Program-made: the position numbers and the translations under genes
Assembly (NCBI GenBank): GCA_964445325.1
Contig: CAYUKN010000002.1
Location: forward strand, 10,794 to 74,793
Source of the DNA: an uncultured Ectothiorhodospiraceae bacterium
GTDB lineage: Bacteria > Pseudomonadota > Gammaproteobacteria > XJ16 > Halofilaceae
Length of the DNA: 64,000 bases
Direction of reading: 5' to 3'
The notes under the pieces: generated by a model
The model's database searches: none
What the model was told of the DNA's origin: nothing
Seen by the model: only the letters and a program-made list of their open reading frames with translations
In this document: piece by piece, positions 11,568-62,921 of the stretch
Layout of the letters: each line of letters starts with the position of its first letter
Position numbering within the stretch: the stretch's first letter is position 1

Positions 11568-11642
11568 GGGCGGTTAGCTCAGCGGGAGAGCGCTGCCTTC
11601 ACACGGCAGAGGTCGCTGGTTCGATCCCAGCACCGCCCACCA
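11568..11642 (+). tRNA. tRNA-Val (anticodon CAC)
   Basis: 75-nt cloverleaf: GGGCGGT/ACCGCCC acceptor stem, GCTC/GAGC D stem, CTGCC-TTCACAC-GGCAG anticodon arm, GCTGG-TTCGATC-CCAGC T arm, encoded CCA. Confidence 0.97.
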
Positions 11643-26134: not shown

Positions 26135-27043
26135 TCAGTCGCGCAGCTCGTGGCCGGTCAGGCGCAGGAACACATCCTCCAGGTTGCCGCGGCGGATGTG
26201 GTAGTCGAGCCCCTGGGTTTCCTGAAGCGCGGCGAGCAATGGATCGTCGTCGTGGGCGTAGAGCAACAGCGTGTCGCCGACCTGCTCACAGCGGTCGACC
26301 AGCGCCGCGCCCACGTTGCGCCCCCAGTCGACGGCCTGCTCGCCGCGCAGCTCCAGTACATGCGGCTCGATCCAGGCGGCCACGAGATCACGGGGACGCC
26401 CGAGCGCGACGATGCGCCCGTGGTCGACGATGGCCAAGCGATCGCACAAGCGTTCGGCCTCTTCCATGTAGTGCGTCGTCAGGATCAACGTGACCCCGTC
26501 ATCGCGCAGCTGACGCAGGCGCTGCCAGATATGCTGGCGGGCCTGCGGGTCCAGGCCGGTCGTGGGCTCGTCGAGGAGGATGAGGTCGGGCCGATTGACC
26601 AGTGCCCGCGCCAATGTGAGGCGCCGCCGCATGCCCCCCGAGAGGGCCGTCACAGGGGCCTGCTCGCGGCCCTCGAGGGCGGCGAAGCGCAGCAAACGGT
26701 CGATCCGCTCGCCCATGCCTGCCTCGAGGCCGAAATAGCTGGCCCATGTGGCCAAGTTCTCGCGCACCGTGAAGTCGGGATCGAGGGCATCGGTCTGCGG
26801 GACCACTCCCACCCGCGCGCGCAACGCGCGCGCCTCGTCGGGCACGGCGTGGCCCAGTACGCGCAGCATGCCGTCGCTGGGCCGGGTCAAACCCAGGAGC
26901 ATCCGTAGCGTGGTCGTCTTGCCCGCGCCATTGGGGCCCAACAGGCCAAAACACTCGCCACCGGTGACGCTGAGATCGACGCCGTCGACCACGGTCAGCT
27001 CCCCGTAGCGCTTGCGCAGACCTTCCGCTCGGATTACGGCCAT
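26135..27043 (-). CDS. ABC ATP-binding protein, NodI-like
   Basis: GPNGAGKTT, LSGGMRRR, LLDEPTTGLDP, LTTHYMEEAE; start ATG 27043. Confidence 0.9.
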   Translation of the reverse strand: MAVIRAEGLRKRYGELTVVDGVDLSVTGGECFGLLGPNGAGKTTTLRMLLGLTRPSDGMLRVLGHAVPDEARALRARVGVVPQTDALDPDFTVRENLATWASYFGLEAGMGERIDRLLRFAALEGREQAPVTALSGGMRRRLTLARALVNRPDLILLDEPTTGLDPQARQHIWQRLRQLRDDGVTLILTTHYMEEAERLCDRLAIVDHGRIVALGRPRDLVAAWIEPHVLELRGEQAVDWGRNVGAALVDRCEQVGDTLLLYAHDDDPLLAALQETQGLDYHIRRGNLEDVFLRLTGHELRD

Positions 27044-27132
27044 GGTCGCTGCCTCTGCGTGGGAACCGGTCGCGCACCCTGGCGGCACGCGCGACAATCG
27101 CGGGGTTCGCGTGGATCCGCCAGGCCGATGCA

Positions 27133-27705
27133 TTGTCGCAACCAACCGACAACACGCTGACCCGGCAGGCCCACGAATGGATCAAGCCCGCCCTGGGGCC
27201 AGGGCGGCGGGCACTCGACGCCACCGCGGGCAACGGTCACGACACGCTGTTCCTGGCCGAGGCCGTTGCCCCGGGCGGCCGGGTCGACGCCTTCGACATC
27301 CAGGGGCTCGCGCTCCGCCGCGCCCGACGCCGCGTGGGCGCGCTCGTGCACCGCGTGCGGCTATGCTGGCACCGCGCCGACCACGCCCGCATTCCGCGCC
27401 ATCTCGGGGCCGCCGCGATCGATGCCGCCATGTTCAATCTGGGCTGGCACCCGGGCGGCGACCGGCGGCTGGTCACCCGTCCGGCCACCACCCTGGCCGC
27501 GCTGAGCGCCACCGCCGAACGCCTGCGCTCCGGCGGACGCCTCTCGGTTGTCGCCTATCGCGGCCACCCGGGCGGCGCGGCCGAGGCCGAGGCCGTCGCC
27601 GACTGGCTCGAGCGCCTCGATGGTGCGTTTCGTGTCGAGCCGGCGCAGCCGGCGAGCGCGCGCGACCACGCCCCCGTGCTCTACCGCGTCTGGGTGGTCC
27701 GTTGA
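27133..27705 (+). CDS. Class I SAM methyltransferase, YtqB/MnmM family
   Basis: DATAGNGHDT, FDIQ, FNLGWHPGGD, YRGHPGGAAE. Confidence 0.8.
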   Translation: MSQPTDNTLTRQAHEWIKPALGPGRRALDATAGNGHDTLFLAEAVAPGGRVDAFDIQGLALRRARRRVGALVHRVRLCWHRADHARIPRHLGAAAIDAAMFNLGWHPGGDRRLVTRPATTLAALSATAERLRSGGRLSVVAYRGHPGGAAEAEAVADWLERLDGAFRVEPAQPASARDHAPVLYRVWVVR

Positions 27706-54411: not shown

Positions 54412-56880
54412 TCAGCCGTCGCCCACATCCGGTTCGCCCATTTCGTCGCCCCCTTGCCCACGCTGCGCCGGCGCCCGCGATGACGCCTGGGTGTCCAGCA
54501 CCGAGCGATCCGGCGGCATGCGGCTGAAACGCACATCGCGCCGGGGGTAGGGGATCTCGATGCCGTGCTGGCGGAACGCCCGATCGATCTGGAGGTTGAT
54601 GTCGCTCTGGACGATCACGAAGTAGGCGATGTCGCGGATGAACACCCGCAGCTCGAACTCGAAGCCGGAATCACCGAACTGGCGCATCACGACCTCCGGC
54701 GGGGGTGCGAGCACCGGGTCGGTGATGACCTGGGCATGCTCCTGCGCAATGGCGAGCAGGATGGAGTGGACTCGGGTCGTATCCGTGCCGAAAGCCACCC
54801 GGACGGGCACGGTCACACGGCCGATCGGATCCCTGAGCATCCAGTTGACCACTTGGCTCTGGATGAGCTCGGAGTTGGGCACGATGACGTCGGCACGGTC
54901 GAAGGTCTGGACCTGGGTCGAGCGGATGCTGATGCGCTTGACGAAGCCCTCGGTACCGCCCACGACGATCCAGTCGTCGGTCTTGACGGGCCGCTCGAAC
55001 AACAGGATCAGGCCGGAGACGAAATTGTTGAAGATGTTCTGCAGGCCGAAGCCGATACCCACCGACAGAGCGCCCGCGATCAGCGCCATATTGGTGAAGT
55101 TCACCCCGGCCACCGCGAGGCCGGCGAGGATGGCGATCGCGCCCCCGAGGTAGCCCGTGATCGTGACCAGGGCCTCGCGCGCACCGCGCTCCATGCGGGT
55201 GCGCCTGAGCCAGCGGTGGCTCATGCGCTGCTGGACCCACCCCGATACGCCCAATAGCACCACCAGCGTGATCAAACCCCAGAGGACGCTGATGGGCACC
55301 AACTCGAAGCGTCCGATGCTGAAGCCCTCGTTGATCACACGCAGCAGCCAGGCGAGGCCGGTGTCCGACATCCCCCAGCTCAACAGCACCAGCAGCAGGA
55401 AGGCGCTCCAGACGCCGACGGCCACCAGGATGCGCAGCCATATCAGCCCGGGGACACGGCGGTCACCGCCCACACCGAGGGTCTCGCGGACACCGCGCTG
55501 CCAGCGATAGCGCCCCTCGTCGAGGCCGTCGAAGAACTCGGCGAGCAGACGCCAGACGAACAGCGACGCGCCAAACGACAGCAGCGTGCCCACGATCCCG
55601 GCGACGACGTACTCGGCCATATTGCGATAGCCGAGCCACTCCGCCCCCAGCGCGAACAGCATGCCCGCGGTCAGCACGATCCGCGGCAAGCGGGTATCGC
55701 GCCCGCTCAACAGCTCACTGACGATCCAGATGATGCGCATGAGCTCGACGACGAGGACCGTCGCGGCGATCACCCGCAACAGCTCGCGCACAGGCTCGGG
55801 GAAGCTCTCGACCGCGAGCGTCGCCGAGAACAACGCCATCAACAGCACCAGCACGGCCAAGACCCGAAGACGCCGCGTCAGGCGGCGCAGCGAGGCTTCC
55901 GGAGCCGGCATGAACGGATGCGCGGGATCGCACGGCGCGAGGAAGACGCGGATGAGGAAGATGAAGAAGAAATAGCCGGCGAGCCCGTAGGCCAACAGCG
56001 TGATGAACGACCATTCGGGCGTGTCGTAGCCGATGAACGTGAGATAGGCGCTGGCGACGAGGCTGGTCGCCAGCGGCGGCAGGATGTTGGCGACACACGC
56101 GAGCACCGACTGGACGAAAGCCGACATCAAGGTGGCGCCCCCACCCAGGCGCTCGGCGGCGCGGAACAACGGGCGCCGCGCATAGACGCTGCCGCCGGCG
56201 CACAGCAACAACAGGCCGACGCCACCGATGAGTTCCGCCCAGCTCAGGTTGTCGATGCCGCTCGAGCGCAGCAGGAACAGCCGCGCCGACGTCCATAGCT
56301 GCTCAGGCTGGCGCAGGTTATCGGCCACGACCACCCAGATGGGGTCCTCGCGCTCGAGCAGGCGTTCGGTGAGCCACTCCTGCTTGAGGCGGGTTAGCCG
56401 GTCCTGGAGCTCATTGGCTCGGAGCTCGAGCACCCGGCAAAGCTGGAGCTGCTTTTCTATGCTGTCGCGCCGGCGCTCGAGTGCTTGGCGCTGCTGCTCG
56501 ATGCCGACGGCTTCGCGGCCACTGATATCACCGAGGGTGTCGAGTTTGCCCTGGACACTCTCCAAGCGGGAGTCGTTCTGGTTGATGCAGCGCTTGGCCT
56601 GGTCGCGGATCGCCGGTATGCGCCCGAGGAACGCCTCGAGCACGTCCTCGCCGGGCGAGGGCTCGATGCGCAGTTGACGCTCCATCTCGCTGAGACTGCG
56701 ATCCGCGTCGGCCACCACCTCCGGATCGATCGCCGAGGCCTGCCCCTGCGCACCCGCGGCGAATGCCGCCGGGCCGATCAGCACCAGAGCCAGTGCCACA
56801 ACACCACCGAAGCGGGCGAGCCCGCGCGCTCGCCCGCTCATGCCGGCTCGACCCGGGATGAAGCGCGCCAACGACGTCAT
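54412..56880 (-). CDS. Large MscS-family mechanosensitive channel (MscK-like)
   Basis: Periplasmic coiled coil, many TM, GALSVGIGFGLQNIFNNFVSG, VPNSELI, IEIPYP; start ATG 56880. Confidence 0.92.
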   Translation of the reverse strand: MTSLARFIPGRAGMSGRARGLARFGGVVALALVLIGPAAFAAGAQGQASAIDPEVVADADRSLSEMERQLRIEPSPGEDVLEAFLGRIPAIRDQAKRCINQNDSRLESVQGKLDTLGDISGREAVGIEQQRQALERRRDSIEKQLQLCRVLELRANELQDRLTRLKQEWLTERLLEREDPIWVVVADNLRQPEQLWTSARLFLLRSSGIDNLSWAELIGGVGLLLLCAGGSVYARRPLFRAAERLGGGATLMSAFVQSVLACVANILPPLATSLVASAYLTFIGYDTPEWSFITLLAYGLAGYFFFIFLIRVFLAPCDPAHPFMPAPEASLRRLTRRLRVLAVLVLLMALFSATLAVESFPEPVRELLRVIAATVLVVELMRIIWIVSELLSGRDTRLPRIVLTAGMLFALGAEWLGYRNMAEYVVAGIVGTLLSFGASLFVWRLLAEFFDGLDEGRYRWQRGVRETLGVGGDRRVPGLIWLRILVAVGVWSAFLLLVLLSWGMSDTGLAWLLRVINEGFSIGRFELVPISVLWGLITLVVLLGVSGWVQQRMSHRWLRRTRMERGAREALVTITGYLGGAIAILAGLAVAGVNFTNMALIAGALSVGIGFGLQNIFNNFVSGLILLFERPVKTDDWIVVGGTEGFVKRISIRSTQVQTFDRADVIVPNSELIQSQVVNWMLRDPIGRVTVPVRVAFGTDTTRVHSILLAIAQEHAQVITDPVLAPPPEVVMRQFGDSGFEFELRVFIRDIAYFVIVQSDINLQIDRAFRQHGIEIPYPRRDVRFSRMPPDRSVLDTQASSRAPAQRGQGGDEMGEPDVGDG

Positions 56881-58004
56881 TGACCGACTCGACCGATGCG
56901 CTCCATTGCGGTGTCGAGGCGCGCCCGGGGACACCCGAAGTTCAGTCGCACGAAGCCCGGCGCCCCGAAGGCGCGCCCGTCGGACAGGCCGACCCCGCTC
57001 TGCTCGAACACGGGCGCGGGCTCGCGCTCGTCGATCGCGCGCGCATCGATCCACGCCAAATAGGTCGCCGCCGGCGAGTTCATCGAGAGACGCGGATGAT
57101 CATCGATCGCGGCCTGCGCCCGCTCGCGATTGTCCCGCAAGTAGGCGATCAGGCGAGCATGCCAGTCGGCGCAGTCGCGCCAAGCAGCGAGCGCCGCGGT
57201 GAAGCCGAGGGCATTGACCCCGGGCACGAAACCGGCCCGTACGCGCTCGAATCGGGCGCGTAACTGCGCGTCGGGGATCACCGCCAGCGAGCACCCCAGC
57301 CCGGCGATATTGTAGGTCTTGCTCGGCGCGAGCAGCGTGATCGTGCGGCGCGCGATCTCGGGGCCCAGCGTCGCCAGGGGGATGTGGGGCTTGTCATGGT
57401 CGAGGATCAGGCCGCAGTGGATCTCGTCGCTGCAGACGAGCAGGTCGCGCTCGACACAAAACGCGGCCAACCTTTCCAGCTCGTCGCGCGAGTACACCCG
57501 GCCCGTGGGATTCTGCGGGTTGCACAGCAGCAGCATCGCCGTATCGCAGGTGAGCGCCGCGTCCAGGGCCTCGAAGTCGATGGCCCCCGCGGCGTCGGCG
57601 AGCGGCACGCGCACGGTTTCGCGGCGGGCCCGGGCGGGTGCCTGGAGGAACGGCGGATAGATGGGCGTGAACGTCGCGATGGCATCGCCGTCGCGCCCGG
57701 CACTCGCGCACGCCAGGTGGATCCCGGGGACGAGGCCGGGCAGCCATACGAGCCACTCGGGCTCGATCGACCAATCGAAATGGTGACGCAGCATCGATAC
57801 GGCGGTGTCGTTGAGCTCGTCGGGCGGCCGTGTATAGCCGAAGACGCCGTGCTCAACGCGTGCGTGCAGCGCCTCCAGCACGGGTGGCGGCGCGCTGAAG
57901 TCCATGTCGGCGACCCACATGGGCAGGATGTCCCGGCCCATGTAGCGATCCCACTTCTCGCTCGCCGTGCCCTCGCGGTCGATGAGTTGGTCGAATTCTT
58001 GCAT
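56877..58004 (-). CDS. PLP-dependent MalY/PatB family C-S lyase / aminotransferase
   Basis: PMWVADMDF, HGVFGY, LCNPQNP, SDEIH, APSKTYNIAGL, RLNFGC; start ATG 58004. Confidence 0.92.
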   Translation of the reverse strand: MQEFDQLIDREGTASEKWDRYMGRDILPMWVADMDFSAPPPVLEALHARVEHGVFGYTRPPDELNDTAVSMLRHHFDWSIEPEWLVWLPGLVPGIHLACASAGRDGDAIATFTPIYPPFLQAPARARRETVRVPLADAAGAIDFEALDAALTCDTAMLLLCNPQNPTGRVYSRDELERLAAFCVERDLLVCSDEIHCGLILDHDKPHIPLATLGPEIARRTITLLAPSKTYNIAGLGCSLAVIPDAQLRARFERVRAGFVPGVNALGFTAALAAWRDCADWHARLIAYLRDNRERAQAAIDDHPRLSMNSPAATYLAWIDARAIDEREPAPVFEQSGVGLSDGRAFGAPGFVRLNFGCPRARLDTAMERIGRVGQ

Positions 58005-58303: not shown

Positions 58304-59080
58304 ATGTTGCAACGGATCGCCGGAGTTTGTACGGGGCTATTCCTGCTGACGACGCTGTCGGCATGCACCGTCGTCAACGAGACTGTCGATCAAGTGAGCG
58401 ACGCCACCAGCGACGCGCTCGAGAGCTCAACCAGCTCATCGGGGACGTCCGACGGCATGGGCATGGCGTCGATGGATCAGATGAGCATGCGCATGTTCCG
58501 CGCCATGTTCTATCAAGGTGGCTACGCGCTCGACACCCGGCGGTTCGAGCCGGGCGAGTACGTGCAATGGCAAGTCGAGGGCCGCGGCGATTCTGAGTGG
58601 TTCCGCAAGGCGATGCTCAAGCGCCGCCCCGACGGCAACGAGTGGTGGCGCCTGATCAACAAGACCAGTAGCGGCAAGATGATCATGGAGGCCTTGCTCG
58701 AGCCCGAGGACGATTCGGGCAGTCGGCGCATTCTGCGCCTGCGGCAGAAGCTCGGGCCGGATCAGAAGGCCGAGGAAGTACCCATCACCAAGGACAACGC
58801 GGATAAGTGGACCTTGGACCGCCAGCGTGAGCTCACCGAGGAGAGCTACAAGGGCATGAAGGTCGGCCGCAAGAGCATCTCGGTGCCCGCGGGCACATTC
58901 CGGGTCGACCATCTGCGCAGCACGCATCCCCAGCGCGGGGGCACGGCCCATTGGTATCTGACGGACGATGTCCCTGGCAGCGTGGCGCGCTACGTCTGGG
59001 AGAGTAATGGCAGCAAGCACACGATGTCGCTGAGCGACTATGGCGATGGCGAGACCTCGTCCCAACTGGGGGCGTTCTAG
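58304..59080 (+). CDS. Uncharacterised lipoprotein, beta-rich with VPAGTF (DUF3108-like) motif
   Basis: Lipobox LSAC; ISVPAGTFRV; start ATG 58304. Confidence 0.75.
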   Translation: MLQRIAGVCTGLFLLTTLSACTVVNETVDQVSDATSDALESSTSSSGTSDGMGMASMDQMSMRMFRAMFYQGGYALDTRRFEPGEYVQWQVEGRGDSEWFRKAMLKRRPDGNEWWRLINKTSSGKMIMEALLEPEDDSGSRRILRLRQKLGPDQKAEEVPITKDNADKWTLDRQRELTEESYKGMKVGRKSISVPAGTFRVDHLRSTHPQRGGTAHWYLTDDVPGSVARYVWESNGSKHTMSLSDYGDGETSSQLGAF

Positions 59081-59112
59081 GACCGCAGGCCGGTGTGCCT
59101 CGACGGCCACGA

Positions 59113-59142
59113 GTATACCGGCGGTTTCCCCCCGCCGGTATA
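59113..59142. other. Perfect 12-bp hairpin between the lipoprotein and mlaE-like genes
   Basis: GTATACCGGCGG-TTTCCC-CCGCCGGTATAC. Confidence 0.7.
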
Positions 59143-59259
59143 CCCTTTAGGGCCGAGGGTCGTGGAACGCAATCCCGCCTGCGCGACTCATCCAGGACCC
59201 GTGGATGAGCGACGCACGTCGCCGAGGATCGCGGGCCCGCCCCGCCCAACCGCCACGCG

Positions 59260-60078
59260 GTGGACTGGTTGATGGGCTCACTGGGGGCTACGGTGGCCAC
59301 AGTGACCGGCGCGTTCGGCCGACCGATCGTCGCTGCATTCGTCTACGCGGTCGATCTGGCGGTGTTCATCTGGCAATCGCTCACCGACCGCAGCCGCCAA
59401 CGTCGCTTGTGGAACCGGGCCTCACGGCGCGCGATGGTCACCCAAGTCATCTTCACCGGTGTCGACGCCCTCCCGGCGATAGTCATCCTCTCGCTGGCGA
59501 TGGGTGCGGGGGTGATCGCGCAACTCGTGCTGGCGTTACAAGAGTTCGGCACTCAGAGCTACGTCGTCACCGTGATCACCGACCTCGTCGCCCTGGAGCT
59601 GGGCGCGCTCTTGACGGCGATCTTCTTGGTCGGCCGGTCGGGATCGGCGATCACCGTCGACCTGCTCAATATGAAGCTCAACAACGAAATCCATGCACTC
59701 GAGCTCCTGGGCATCAACATCAACGACTTCCTGATCGTGCCGCGTTTGGTAGGTTGCAGTGTCGCTCAGCTCGTGCTGGCGATCGTATTCTCTTTCGTTG
59801 CATTGACCAGCACCGTTTTCGTCACGGCCGTATTCGCGCCGATCAACCTGGCGCAGTATTTCCACGCCATCGTCGGCGCCTTCACGGGTCTCGATATCGC
59901 AGTTTTCCTTTTCAAGAATGCATTGTTCGGCTTGATCATCGGCAGCATCGCATGCTTTCACGGGCTGCAGATCAAGGACTCGGTCACCGAGATCCCGCAG
60001 CAAACACAAAAGGCGATCGTGTCCACACTGCTGGTGATTTTCGTACTGGACGGCATACTCGCCGGGGCATTGGGGTGA
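59260..60078 (+). CDS. MlaE-family ABC permease (MCE system)
   Basis: FTGVDALP, ELGALLTAIFLVGRSGSAIT, EIHALELLGIN..FLIVPR, AIVSTL. Confidence 0.9.
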   Translation: MDWLMGSLGATVATVTGAFGRPIVAAFVYAVDLAVFIWQSLTDRSRQRRLWNRASRRAMVTQVIFTGVDALPAIVILSLAMGAGVIAQLVLALQEFGTQSYVVTVITDLVALELGALLTAIFLVGRSGSAITVDLLNMKLNNEIHALELLGININDFLIVPRLVGCSVAQLVLAIVFSFVALTSTVFVTAVFAPINLAQYFHAIVGAFTGLDIAVFLFKNALFGLIIGSIACFHGLQIKDSVTEIPQQTQKAIVSTLLVIFVLDGILAGALG

Positions 60079-60833
60079 CCAGCGACCAGCCAATCGTTGC
60101 CGAGAACGTGACGACCGGCGCTCCCGAGCGCCCGCCGCTGTCGTGCCGCCTGGGTGATGAGCGCCTGGTATGCGTAATGGGCCCGCGCGCATGCCGGCGC
60201 GATTACATGAGGCTATTGGCGGGTGTCGATGCAGGCGCTGGCGGCGATCTCGATCTCCTCGGCTGGCCCGCCGGCAAGCTGGATCGAGCGAGGGCCCGTT
60301 GGCTGCGACGCCGCATTGGCTATATCGCACCGTATCTGCGGCTTTTGTCGGTGATCAGCGCTTGGCGCAACGTGCTGCTGGGGGTCACTTATCATGATCT
60401 GGGCGAACCGGCGAAGCGCGAAGAGCGTGCGCAGCATCTCATCGACGCGATGCCGGGCGCGGCGCATCCGGCGACGCTACCTGCTCACATGAGCCAGCTC
60501 CAGCACATGCACATGACGACCGCGCGCTCGATCATGCTCGAGCCTGCGTTCCTCTTCGCTGAGGATCCGTTTCGCGGCCTGGAGCACGACGAACGCCAGC
60601 GCCTGGGTGATTTCCTCGCGCGAGTTGCACCCGCTTACACCGGCACCGTCGTGGTCTCCACCGATGACGCAGGCTTCGCCCGCGATTATGCTGAACGCAT
60701 CGTGTTCGTTTCGCCGGAAGGGCATGGCGATTTCGCCGATTGGGCGGCGCTTCGCGCGAGCCGGGATGGCGCGGTCCAGGCGTACTTGCGACAGCGTTCT
60801 GCGGGCGAGGGGGCGCCCGAGGAGGAGCAATGA
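60075..60833 (+). CDS. Degenerate MlaF-like ABC ATPase (pseudo-ATPase)
   Basis: In frame within ORF 59205..60833, GTG start overlapping the mlaE stop. ABC fold recognisable (RRRIGYI, SAWRNVLL, MLEPAFLF) but Walker A, signature, Walker B and H-loop are all altered. Confidence 0.8.
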   Translation: MTSDQPIVAENVTTGAPERPPLSCRLGDERLVCVMGPRACRRDYMRLLAGVDAGAGGDLDLLGWPAGKLDRARARWLRRRIGYIAPYLRLLSVISAWRNVLLGVTYHDLGEPAKREERAQHLIDAMPGAAHPATLPAHMSQLQHMHMTTARSIMLEPAFLFAEDPFRGLEHDERQRLGDFLARVAPAYTGTVVVSTDDAGFARDYAERIVFVSPEGHGDFADWAALRASRDGAVQAYLRQRSAGEGAPEEEQ

Positions 60834-61849
60834 GCCAGCAGCAGCCCCACTATGTACACCGTGTGCAATACACCACGCAGGAGCGCATCGTCGGTGTGTT
60901 CGTGCTGATCGGTTTGGCCGTCGTTATTGGTCTGATGGTCGCGAAGGGCCAGAGCACGAATTTCTTCGAGGAGCGCATCACCTATCACGCGACGCTCGAC
61001 AACGCCCAAGGCGTGTCCACCGAGACACCGGTCAAGGTATCGGGCATCGAGGTCGGGCGGGTTTCCTCACTCGGCATCTCCGAGCAAAACCGGGTCGACG
61101 TCGAGTTCTTCGTCTACGAACGCTTCCGCGACCTCATTCGCGAGGATTCGCAGGGCGCACTGGGTAAGCTATCAATGCTGGGCAATGCCACGCTCAACAT
61201 CACCACGGGCTCACCGGAGCGTGAGCCGTTGCCCGAAGACGCCGAGATCCCCGTCGAGGAACCCCAGTCGATCAATGACCTAATCGCCGCGGCACGGCCG
61301 GTGGTCGAGCGCATGCGCAACGCCATCGAGGACGCCACACGGCTCATCGCGGCAGTCGATCCCGACGCTGTCAGCCAAGCCACCGACAATCTGGCGCAAG
61401 CGGCCGCTAACGCACGGCGCGTTACCGACGACGTGCGCGCGGGCAAAGGGCCAGTCGGCGAGATCCTCTACGGCGAGACCACACAGGCGCGCGTCGAGCG
61501 CACCACCGCGGCGATGGCCGAGACAGCGGAGCTCGCCGAGGCGCGCATGCGCGAGCTCGAGCCCGTCACCACCGACGCCGAGGCGACCATGGCCGCCTTT
61601 CGCGAGCTAGCCGAGCGCTTGCCCGCGCTCAGCGACGATGTCGATGCCCTGGTGGCCGGCTTCGACCGTACCGCAACGCTGGCGAATGAGCGCCTCGAGG
61701 ACCTGCCCGAGCTCACCACGGAAGCCGAGGTCCTGCTGGGCGAGGCCAACCGCACGATGAAGGGGGCGCAACGGATCTGGCCACTGTCCGAGGCACTCGA
61801 GGGCGATACGGGCACCACCGTGATCGAAGCGCAACCGGCCCAGCAATGA
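60830..61849 (+). CDS. MCE/MlaD family protein with long helical extension
   Basis: N-terminal TM, AQGVSTETPVKVSGIEVGRV, SMLGNATLNITTG, heptad-rich C-terminus; ATG 60830. Confidence 0.9.
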   Translation: MSQQQPHYVHRVQYTTQERIVGVFVLIGLAVVIGLMVAKGQSTNFFEERITYHATLDNAQGVSTETPVKVSGIEVGRVSSLGISEQNRVDVEFFVYERFRDLIREDSQGALGKLSMLGNATLNITTGSPEREPLPEDAEIPVEEPQSINDLIAAARPVVERMRNAIEDATRLIAAVDPDAVSQATDNLAQAAANARRVTDDVRAGKGPVGEILYGETTQARVERTTAAMAETAELAEARMRELEPVTTDAEATMAAFRELAERLPALSDDVDALVAGFDRTATLANERLEDLPELTTEAEVLLGEANRTMKGAQRIWPLSEALEGDTGTTVIEAQPAQQ

Positions 61850-61877
61850 TCGGCGGTGATCGGGCTTGGGGGCACGC

Positions 61878-62921
61878 GTGACGAGCAACCCGGACGAGCG
61901 CGAGCGCGCACGGCAGCGGCGCCACGCGGTGTCGGCAATCGCCGCCCTGGCCGCCTCGCTGGTGCTCGCCGCTTGCGTGAGCGACGCCCCCGAGGAGGCG
62001 ACGCAAGCGCCACCCCATGAGGGTCAGCAATTACTCGAACGCGGGGTTCGCTCATACGAGCGCCGTGACTACGAGGCAGCGGCAACCGACTTCACGCAGG
62101 CGCTTGCCTATTTCCGCAGCTACGACCTCGCCGACGGCGTGGTGCGCAGCCGAATCAACCTAGCGCGTATCGAGCTCGATCTCGGCCGCCCCGAGGCAGC
62201 ACACGATCACCTGGCCGCCGCCCGCGCGAACGCGGACCGGGCGCAAGATGGCGACTGGTCCGCCCGGTTGGACCTGCTCGACAGCTCCGTGGCGATCGAG
62301 CTGGGCGAGCTAGAGCGTGCCGTGCAACACATCGAACCCCACCTGCCCGACTTTGGCGACGATGCTCGCGTCGCCGGCAGTGCCGGCACGCTCTCGTCGG
62401 AGCAGCTGAGCTTTGTCGCCAACCGCGTCGCGGTGGCATTCGAGCGCGGCGACGGCGATCGACGGCAATGGCTGGCCCGCCTGCGCAATGCCCTGGCGGC
62501 GCAGGATGCGGCGAGCCCCTTGCTCGAAGGTCGGCTCGAGCGCTTTCGTGCCCGCCTCGCGGCGGACGACGGCGACGAGCGGCTTGCGCTGGAACGGCTC
62601 GACCAGGCCGTGCGCCACTACCAACGGGCGCGCCACCGTGCCGGCATTGCCGCCGCACTGGAACAATCGGCCGGCATCCATGCCAACCGGGGCGAACACG
62701 AGCGCGCGCGTAACCATCTCGATCGCGCGCTCTATCTCCATCTATCGGTGCGCAACGCGCGAGCGACACGCGCGAATCTCGACAAACGCTTGGCCTGGAT
62801 CGAACCCCAGTCGAGTCGCCGGATGGCGTTGCGCGCCTGGATGGAACGGCTGACCACGCCCGAGGGGGTCGACTGGAGTGCCCTGCGCGATGCGGTGATC
62901 GAAGAACCGGTCCGCCGCTAG
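61878..62921 (+). CDS. TPR-repeat lipoprotein
   Basis: Lipobox LAAC; repeated helical TPR-like units (AATDFTQALAYF, ALERLDQAVRHY); GTG start 61878. Confidence 0.8.
   Translation: MTSNPDERERARQRRHAVSAIAALAASLVLAACVSDAPEEATQAPPHEGQQLLERGVRSYERRDYEAAATDFTQALAYFRSYDLADGVVRSRINLARIELDLGRPEAAHDHLAAARANADRAQDGDWSARLDLLDSSVAIELGELERAVQHIEPHLPDFGDDARVAGSAGTLSSEQLSFVANRVAVAFERGDGDRRQWLARLRNALAAQDAASPLLEGRLERFRARLAADDGDERLALERLDQAVRHYQRARHRAGIAAALEQSAGIHANRGEHERARNHLDRALYLHLSVRNARATRANLDKRLAWIEPQSSRRMALRAWMERLTTPEGVDWSALRDAVIEEPVRR

Follow-up and report, generated by a model that had tools for sequence, protein, structure and literature searches.

A conserved MCE module with a degenerate ABC nucleotide-binding subunit and a TPR lipoprotein: a candidate trans-envelope lipid conduit

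Genes of the locus

The stretch of DNA analysed here (the window) comprises 64,000 nucleotides of contig CAYUKN010000002.1 from an uncultured Ectothiorhodospiraceae bacterium (assembly GCA_964445325.1), and the subject of this account is a set of five genes, G1 to G5, that lies between positions 58304 and 62921. All five open reading frames (ORFs) are co-oriented on the + strand and show the codon-position GC pattern typical of real genes (Table 1). The last four, at 59260-62921, are the functional unit: an MlaE-family permease, a pseudo-ATPase homologous to the nucleotide-binding domains (NBDs) of ATP-binding cassette (ABC) proteins, a mammalian cell entry (MCE) protein with a helical needle and a tetratricopeptide repeat (TPR) lipoprotein, as only G2-G5 travel together outside the clade of the window. 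The GTG start of G3 lies inside the GTGA that ends G2 (60075-60078) and G4 starts within the ATGA that ends G3 (60830-60833). For G2 the gene callers, on the identical contig, chose an ATG at 59272, which gives 268 residues, and G5 may alternatively start from a TTG at 61866, which gives 351 residues; the gap between G4 and G5 is 16-28 nt depending on the start. A Shine-Dalgarno-like AAGGGGG precedes the start of G1.

Table 1. Positions of the genes and associated features in the window
Feature	Position	Strand	Description
G1	58304-59080	+	Lipoprotein of 258 residues, lipobox LSAC, Cys21; LolA/LolB/LprG/RseB-like half-barrel predicted; neighbour outside the conserved module
Candidate hairpin	59113-59143	+	Perfect 12-bp GC-rich stem, 7-nt loop, 33 nt past the G1 stop
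G2	59260-60078	+	MlaE-family permease, 272 residues from GTG at 59260
G3	60075-60833	+	ABC NBD homologue of 252 residues, all catalytic motifs degenerate (pseudo-ATPase)
G4	60830-61849	+	MCE protein of 339 residues: transmembrane helix, one MCE domain, helical extension
G4 conserved C-terminal tail	61778-61846	+	WPLSEALEGDTGTTVIEAQPAQQ; candidate docking peptide for the G5 lipoprotein
G5	61878-62921	+	TPR lipoprotein, 347 residues from GTG at 61878; lipobox LAAC, Cys codon 61974-61976

A first-pass annotation, made by a model from the letters and a list of ORFs, had described the co-oriented genes, the GTGA and ATGA overlaps, MlaE, the degenerate ATPase and the long helical extension of the MCE protein, and all of these sequence facts check out. 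It had also reported that MlaA, MlaB, MlaC, PqiA and PqiC-type genes are absent, and with Pfam and NCBIfam none of these was matched among the five locus proteins, to which the search for MlaA, MlaB and MlaC was confined. Scanning of the locus for promoters and terminators returned nothing meaningful, and no RNA runs containing the locus sequence were found, the matching runs being sediment-metagenome DNA only.

G2 aligns with PF02405 at 1.3e-49 over profile positions 2-210 of 212 and is thus an MlaE-family permease; its best sequence matches in the PDB are MlaE of Pseudomonas aeruginosa, Acinetobacter baumannii and Escherichia coli, and also YrbE1A. G4 is a membrane-anchored MCE protein, with a hydrophobic N-terminal transmembrane helix (residues 20-38, 60887-60943) followed by a single MlaD/MCE domain (residues 50-127, 60977-61210; PF02470, 1.2e-14). 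The approximately 195 residues beyond this domain gave only matches of coiled-coil type (141-315), the helical extension running from about 145 to 316. The best single-MCE match in the PDB is PA3213 of P. aeruginosa (13HR chain I), aligned over residues 20-265 at 3.7e-8. The family Helical_needle (PF28544) is on record for the G4 counterparts in related loci (the match in locus L024 is unmarked, with E at most 1e-5), and G4, which itself has no PF28544 match, may on its alignment with PA3213 be counted as a single MCE domain with a long helical needle.

Motif loss and purifying selection in the nucleotide-binding subunit

The fold of G3 is clearly that of an ABC NBD, with profile matches to NBDs in the PDB at 3e-20 to 8e-40, while PF00005 ABC_tran is reached at only E = 0.034 and no NCBIfam model reaches its cut-off. 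Its motifs were read from an alignment with six relatives, with E. coli MlaF as a ruler together with the PDB NBD chains YbbA and 5XU1; the motif calls were cross-checked against the PDB chains and with regular expressions. Walker A, GxxGxGK[ST] in the consensus, has become GPRAC-RR with a one-residue deletion (GPRAC-RRDY in G3 itself, GPRAC-RR or GPRAC-RH in the clade), the glutamine of the Q-loop is a proline, the LSGGQ signature is MSQLQ (M[ST]QLQ in the clade), the Asp-Glu of the Walker B and catalytic pair is Glu-Asp, and the histidine of the H-loop is an aspartate. With Walker A, Q-loop, LSGGQ, Walker B and H-loop all replaced, G3 does not qualify as a catalytically competent ABC ATPase. 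The replacements are conserved in the six closest relatives (54-76% identity), and the ratio of nonsynonymous to synonymous substitution rates (dN/dS) is 0.155 against the orthologue in L005; because of both, G3 is to be regarded as a selected protein and not as a decaying gene. Against the same locus G2 and G4 have dN/dS values of 0.08-0.10, while the flanking aminotransferase has 0.13.

In an ABC protein, one NBD gives its Walker A, Walker B and H-loop to an ATP site, to which the partner NBD adds its signature. Having neither Walker A nor signature, G3 would therefore build no consensus ATP site, whether as a homodimer or as a heterodimer with a canonical MlaF, a deduction that follows from ABC geometry and not from measurement.

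G3 is a member of a much wider family. A word-indexed protein search returned only seven close relatives, whereas an exhaustive search of 1.84 billion representative proteins with a profile hidden Markov model returned at least 119 clusters at 50% identity. Among the best 150 matches of this search, on which the statistics are based, 125 are single-domain proteins of about 245-265 residues, and an LSGGQ-type signature is missing from 119 of these 125, 80 of which are also without both the Walker A GK[ST] and the Walker B DE. Not until rank 131 does a canonical single-domain NBD appear; the two-domain matches, 29 in number, are canonical without exception, and their scores are the sum over two domains. 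Counted by column over 118 representatives, SGG is never found, while the Q-loop glutamine is kept in 11, the Walker A lysine in 41, the catalytic glutamate in 32 and the H-loop histidine in 30, and in 51 of the 118 none of the lysine, glutamate and histidine is kept. Members of the family are found in the tubeworm symbiont Candidatus Endoriftia persephone and in further gammaproteobacteria, under the annotation of a hypothetical protein or a generic ABC ATPase; one cluster (P0033) includes sequences from Candidatus Endoriftia persephone and from the endosymbionts of Ridgeia and Riftia (e.g. WP_006475795.1).

The distribution of conservation within the family points the same way. The entropies of the P-loop, Q-loop, D-loop and H-loop (2.4-2.95 bits) are at or near the family mean of 2.60 bits, whereas the segment behind the Q-loop has 1.77 bits and the IARALxLxP structural core 1.30 bits, and Asn99, Tyr106, His107 and Arg151 are at least 99% conserved. 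In canonical ABC NBDs the segment behind the Q-loop contacts the coupling helix of the permease, and in working ATPases the catalytic loops are strongly constrained. Judged from the alignment, the constraint pattern of the G3 family is thus inverted relative to that of working ATPases.

The module and its neighbourhoods

G5 matches TPR_12 (5.4e-07) and TPR_2 (6.9e-07) in Pfam. Its AlphaFold2 model (predicted local distance difference test score, pLDDT, 83.6) is an all-helical superhelix of about seven TPR-like hairpins, with 15 helices past the signal peptide, and the structures found with Foldseek are the TPR domains of LGN/Pins, PEX5, Rap phosphatases and LapB, which bind peptides or serve as scaffolds. 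No PqiC, LptE or CsgG-like chain was present among the top 50 Foldseek matches listed, all of which are helical-repeat proteins and mostly TPR. The predicted fold is neither the PqiC-like one (DUF330/ABC_trans_aux) nor that of MlaA or MlaC, and the idea that this lipoprotein is something other than a plain PqiC or MlaC homologue has held. The LAAC lipobox is conserved in all G5 homologues, making them lipoproteins with tandem TPRs, and a VS.PP-like segment behind it is conserved as well. At 45-64% identity within the clade and a dN/dS of 0.34 against L005, G5 is the fastest-evolving protein of the module. Its first two TPRs are the part best conserved across lineages and the sole part kept in L021, which suggests that the N-terminal TPRs are the essential part of the lipoprotein. 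In L021, which was found as the context of P0043, a lipoprotein of 136 residues (L021:7802-8212) with the first two TPRs only replaces the TPR protein of about 330 residues.

The C-terminal tail of G4 follows the pattern [IV]WP[LV]S.A, a short variable stretch and then [ILVM][IM]..[QRH]P in the window, L005-L010, L016-L020 and L024. In L021, the locus with the truncated lipoprotein, the MCE tail retains only SWPL..V and has a different ending.

The five genes stand together in all close relatives of G3 (L001, L005-L010). These belong to the clade of the window, uncultured Ectothiorhodospiraceae, in which the order P-II, Amt, epimerase, MscS, aminotransferase, the five genes, ArgG and pyruvate dehydrogenase E1 is shared; because the whole neighbourhood is syntenic within one narrow clade, the adjacency of G1 carries little weight there. 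Outside it, MlaE, the degenerate NBD, an MCE protein of 336-343 residues and a TPR lipoprotein occur in the same order in L016 (the surroundings of P0025), L024 (those of P0033) and L017 and L018-L020, the four last-named loci having come from a metagenome scan with a six-sequence alignment. L021 has the same first three genes followed by the 136-residue lipoprotein, and its NBD, P0043, keeps the lysine, aspartate, glutamate and histidine and has no signature. Five distinct neighbourhoods of the module can thus be told apart: the window clade, L018-L020, L016, L024 (a Candidatus Endoriftia-type contig) and L021. The linkage of the TPR lipoprotein to MCE genes in other genomes, on which the first-pass annotation had staked its proposal, is borne out, since in every informative context of the pseudo-ATPase relatives the lipoprotein gene directly follows the MCE gene; the homologues outside the clade have 32-40% identity over about 310 residues. 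A protein search with G5 returned clade members only, and the wider homologues came from gene context and tblastn.

G1 differs in this respect. That all five genes act as one system was the earlier proposal, and of this the recurrence of G2-G5 in five neighbourhoods has stood, whereas G1 is adjacent in the window clade only: in L016-L021 and L024, the module loci outside the clade, no G1 lies closer than 7 kb to the module. Relatives of G1 at 30-35% identity (P0016-P0019) adjoin PKD/beta-helix proteins, CstA or acetate kinase and never MCE genes. As a component of the system G1 was rejected on these two grounds, and with it falls its suggested role as a beta-rich cargo carrier, against which the absence of linkage in other genomes had been named in advance as the deciding observation. 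Membership of the system is unsupported, and G1 is a clade-specific neighbour of the module. Between G1 and mlaE lies a spacer of 156-394 nt across lineages, and in three of the four lineages (the window, L007 and L009, with none in L005) a perfect or near-perfect GC-rich 12-bp hairpin occurs shortly past the G1 stop. In the window a centroid fold of the spacer keeps only the stem at 59113-59143; there is no T-run, which is why the terminator scan did not call it, and a transcript may end at this hairpin, after G1 and ahead of the module, although as predicted from the sequence the hairpin is suggestive only.

As to what G1 may be, the window protein has no match in Pfam or NCBIfam. The DUF3108-like label given to it earlier is reasonable as a guess at the fold but goes no further, since PF21347 DUF3108_like is faint (E 0.047) in three of ten family members and unmatched by the window protein. 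Its AlphaFold2 model, built on a 10-sequence alignment (pLDDT 73.8), has a core at residues 61-250 with values mostly of 78-95 and a disordered linker of about 55 residues behind the lipobox, the cysteine of which is invariant across the family. Foldseek against the PDB gave, at probability 1.0, a YmcC-like exported protein, VioE, RseB/MucB, LprG/LppX, ependymin and LolA/LolB, with TM-scores of only 0.3-0.45. The model would place G1 in the LolA-like half-barrel class, for which binding of a hydrophobic ligand or lipid is plausible. The G1 family consists of small, unannotated lipoproteins with EWW, PAGTF and VPG motifs, which NCBI labels as hypothetical protein, and relatives in L011, L013 and L014 lie in unrelated contexts in other bacteria.

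Some further observations concern the surroundings of the module. An ammonium transporter is the only flanking gene common to the window clade and L018-L020 (window:52102-53370; L020:4741-5937). It abuts mlaE directly in L018-L020 and lies about 6 kb upstream in the window clade, where the epimerase, MscS-like channel, aminotransferase and G1 come between; this spacing suggests that the region upstream of the module has undergone an insertion or rearrangement. Enzymes of nucleotide second messengers are found just upstream of the module in two loci whose neighbourhoods are unrelated, a GGDEF protein in L016 (L016:881-2362) and a CHASE2-guanylate cyclase in L021 (L021:1269-3581), which could be coincidence or a hint of a regulatory ligand for a non-catalytic NBD. 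A further class of lipid bridges across the envelope is formed by the AsmA/YhdP proteins, and a gene of this family lies about 1.6 kb downstream of the module in L024 (L024:12367-14505, - strand), with no such neighbour in the window. Downstream of the locus in the window two ORFs were considered as extra components and rejected, one of 205 residues that matches only its own contig and a protein of about 250 residues that is restricted to the window clade. No paralogues of MlaE, MCE, G1 or G5 were found elsewhere in the 64-kb window, and the sole other ABC ATPase-like gene in it, an unrelated one at about 26.4-27.0 kb (26135-27145, - strand; 32% identity to MlaF over 216 residues), is without an adjacent MlaE or MCE paralogue. 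Upstream, the MscS-family mechanosensitive channel at 54412-57054 (- strand) has a longest ORF of 880 residues, its orthologues being called at 771-819, and the class I/II aminotransferase occupies 56877-58004, where the ORF list carries the frame on to 58364 and yet the orthologues have 375 residues. With Rfam and ARAGORN a tRNA-Val (anticodon CAC) at 11568-11642 is the only RNA gene in the window.

A proposed lipid conduit and its relation to known systems

The reading that we favour, with a probability of roughly 0.6, is that G2-G5 encode an ABC-derived MCE trans-envelope lipid conduit that works without canonical ATP hydrolysis and is capped by the TPR lipoprotein, G1 not being a demonstrated component. 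The scheme that we infer, for stoichiometry and cargo as for direction, is as follows. An MlaE dimer capped by two pseudo-NBDs would lie beneath a hexamer of the MCE protein, G4 presumably being hexameric like other MCE proteins, and the helical extension of about 195 residues would form a needle or tunnel that spans the periplasm. G3 would persist as a cytoplasmic subunit with a structural or regulatory function that sits on the permease, stabilising or gating one of its conformations. Hydrophobic cargo, most likely phospholipid, would pass between inner membrane and outer membrane by way of the MlaE pocket and the MCE tunnel, and its movement would be passive or otherwise gated, with no canonical ATP cycling, as in Let and Pqi, which work without an ATPase subunit (PMC13631591). 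At the distal end the TPR lipoprotein, probably located at the outer membrane, would take the place of a PqiC-like one in holding the needle, plausibly by way of the conserved G4 tail. In PA3213 and in PqiB a peptide at the C-terminus docks into a groove on the respective lipoprotein (PMC13631591), and by analogy with these the G4 tail is a candidate docking peptide for G5.

Such docking of the tail in a groove of G5 is an attractive hypothesis because the tail is conserved and the TPR fold of the lipoprotein is one to which extended peptides typically bind. A bolder version of the scheme, which we put forward only tentatively and would not back at even odds, holds that an ABC lineage has been converted to an ATP-independent lipid bridge, that the NBD is kept in at least 119 clusters solely as a cap, structural or regulatory, by which the MlaE dimer is fixed or gated, and that the TPR lipoprotein is a third structural class of partner for MCE tunnels, beside the MlaA-like and PqiC-like ones, whose concave groove captures the C-terminal peptide of the needle.

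Several points weigh against the proposed conduit. The evidence is computational throughout, and gene contexts were sampled for about eight lineages of the at least 119 clusters. Twelve of the 118 representatives keep the Walker A lysine, the Walker B Asp-Glu and the H-loop histidine, so that by their sequences some family members may still bind or slowly hydrolyse ATP, and the basic P-loop of the window clade (GPRAC-RR/RH) could conceivably still bind phosphate. The ancestry of G3, whether from MlaF or from YbbA/LolD/MacB, is blurred by PDB and NCBIfam matches that are generic, though MlaF profiles align through the C-terminal region. Sorting of G5 to the outer membrane is suggested only by there being no aspartate at position +2, a rule that is unreliable outside enterobacteria.

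Four other explanations have to be considered. It is unlikely that the transporter is still driven by ATP and works like MlaFEDB or PA3211-PA3214, its NBD using non-canonical residues or pairing with a canonical MlaF from elsewhere. Such an arrangement would suit the clear ABC NBD fold, the Walker A, Walker B and H-loop retained in some family members and the conserved basic P-loop residues of the window clade, and in mycobacteria MceG already exemplifies an ATPase that is provided in trans. Set against it are the absence of SGG from all 118 representatives and the joint loss from G3 of the Walker A lysine, Q-loop glutamine, catalytic glutamate and H-loop histidine; with Walker A and signature both gone, both halves of the composite site would be defective in any pairing. 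Moreover, the rate at which the catalytic loops evolve equals or exceeds the family average, and the G3 gene is coupled in translation to the permease gene on one side and the MCE gene on the other, which makes its product the cognate subunit. Decay of a PA3211-type operon into a non-functional remnant is strongly disfavoured and was discarded on the dN/dS values, which are 0.08-0.34 for all four module genes. It would account for the lost ATPase motifs and for the rarity of the family in reference genomes, where clade-specific patterns found one locus in the representative genomes of 185,579 species, in an uncultured Ectothiorhodospiraceae metagenome-assembled genome, but not for the intact reading frames and coupled start and stop codons, the at least 119 clusters with conserved length and conserved non-catalytic positions, or the maintenance of the module in five different neighbourhoods.

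The two remaining alternatives concern the lipoproteins. The suggestion that a LolA-like G1 is a dedicated cargo carrier, a functional analogue of MlaC, draws on its co-oriented, adjacent position in all members of the window clade and on a predicted fold from the lipid- or lipoprotein-binding LolA/LprG/RseB class with an invariant lipobox cysteine. Clade-wide synteny devalues this adjacency, however, the other module loci lack G1, its homologues lie in unrelated contexts, GC-rich hairpins stand in the spacer before mlaE, and a tunnel-type MCE protein has no need of a soluble shuttle, so that we consider the five-gene model quite improbable. More weight is due to the possibility, still a doubtful one, that the TPR lipoprotein truly belongs to the module but is no dock at the outer membrane, serving the MCE hexamer instead as assembly chaperone, regulator or peptidoglycan-associated spacer, perhaps with its anchor in the inner membrane. 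Scaffolding and regulation are common roles of TPR lipoproteins, for instance BamD, LpoA, NlpI and PilF/PilW, G5 evolves faster than its partners, and L021 manages with 136 residues. On the other side, G5 is encoded at the place that PqiC, PA3214 and MpcA have in their operons, right after the needle MCE gene and often with overlapping codons, the conserved MCE tail co-occurs with the TPR lipoprotein, and the closest structural matches of the model are peptide-binding TPR domains such as those of PEX5 and LGN.

The energy source of MCE tunnels and the way in which they connect to the outer membrane are unsettled matters in envelope biogenesis, for which the module is a natural experiment: the architecture of PA3211 and Mpc with a catalytically stripped ATPase under purifying selection and a lipoprotein of a different fold. 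If the module does transport lipids, ATP hydrolysis would be dispensable for an MlaE-based conduit, which bears on the debate about directionality and energy use in Mla; if the NBD is a regulator, it would be a homo-oligomeric ABC pseudo-enzyme, of which we have met no description. A signature-less NBD family under purifying selection together with a third fold among the lipoproteins of MCE systems would come as a surprise to specialists and can be tested directly. In the literature covered, which did not extend to subscription journals, no account was found of a TPR lipoprotein with MCE or Mla genes or of degenerate MlaF-like subunits. The subtype, with its degenerate ATPase and TPR lipoprotein and no PqiC- or MlaA-type partner, thus appears as undescribed as the first-pass annotation had supposed, and the family is wider than could be known from the window.

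The nearest described architectures are PA3211-PA3214 of P. aeruginosa (JBC 2026, PMC13631591; PDB 13HQ/13HR/13HS) and MpcEFDA of Brucella abortus, a chimera of Mla and Pqi (EMBO J 2025, PMC12436622). The former consists of an MlaE-like permease, an MlaF-like ATPase, a needle single-MCE protein and a PqiC-like lipoprotein, and the module shares with it the order of permease, NBD, single-MCE needle (312 residues in PA3213, 339 in G4) and, last, lipoprotein. G4 also ends in a C-terminal peptide, as does PA3213, whose peptide docks into the lipoprotein. PA3214, however, forms a PqiC-like octameric ring, whereas G5 is predicted to be a TPR superhelix, and PA3212 is depicted as an ATPase (Fig. 1 legend of PMC13631591, the contrast being one of description only) while G3 is without all the catalytic residues. 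The direction and mechanism of transport are left open for that system, and the outer-membrane partners known for MCE proteins are a porin-like beta-barrel or lipoproteins of two folds, MlaA-like and PqiC-like (PMC13631591). MpcEFDA is likewise a four-gene operon with homologues of MlaE and MlaF, the lipoprotein last and neither MlaC nor MlaA, and its MCE protein of 331 residues has a helical needle that is predicted to span the periplasm. It differs from the module in that MpcE has an N-terminal STAS domain, for which the N-terminal segment of G2 is too short (PF02405 begins at residue 60), that MpcA is PqiC-like, and that MpcF is described as an ABC ATPase homologous to MlaF, again a contrast by description (PMC12436622).

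With E. coli MlaFEDB-MlaC-MlaA the module has in common the MlaE permease, an MCE protein with an N-terminal transmembrane helix and an NBD gene adjoining that of the permease. MlaD, in contrast, lacks a needle and depends on the MlaC shuttle and MlaA-OmpC/F, the STAS partner MlaB is needed, and the ATPase, MlaF, is a working one. E. coli LetAB and PqiABC resemble the module in having MCE tunnels that cross the periplasm and no ATPase, and PqiB in its helical needle and lipoprotein partner, so that they offer a precedent for ATP-free MCE transport; theirs, however, is a LetA/PqiA-type inner-membrane partner with three to seven MCE domains per chain, whereas the locus has no PqiA/LetA-type gene and G4 a single MCE domain, which places it outside Pqi and Let. 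Finally, the loss of the NBD consensus with retention and conservation of the NBD itself is seen in the degenerate-site ABC transporters, such as CFTR, TM287/288 and many heterodimeric exporters. These transporters keep one consensus site that drives the cycle, whereas the NBD of G3 can form none.

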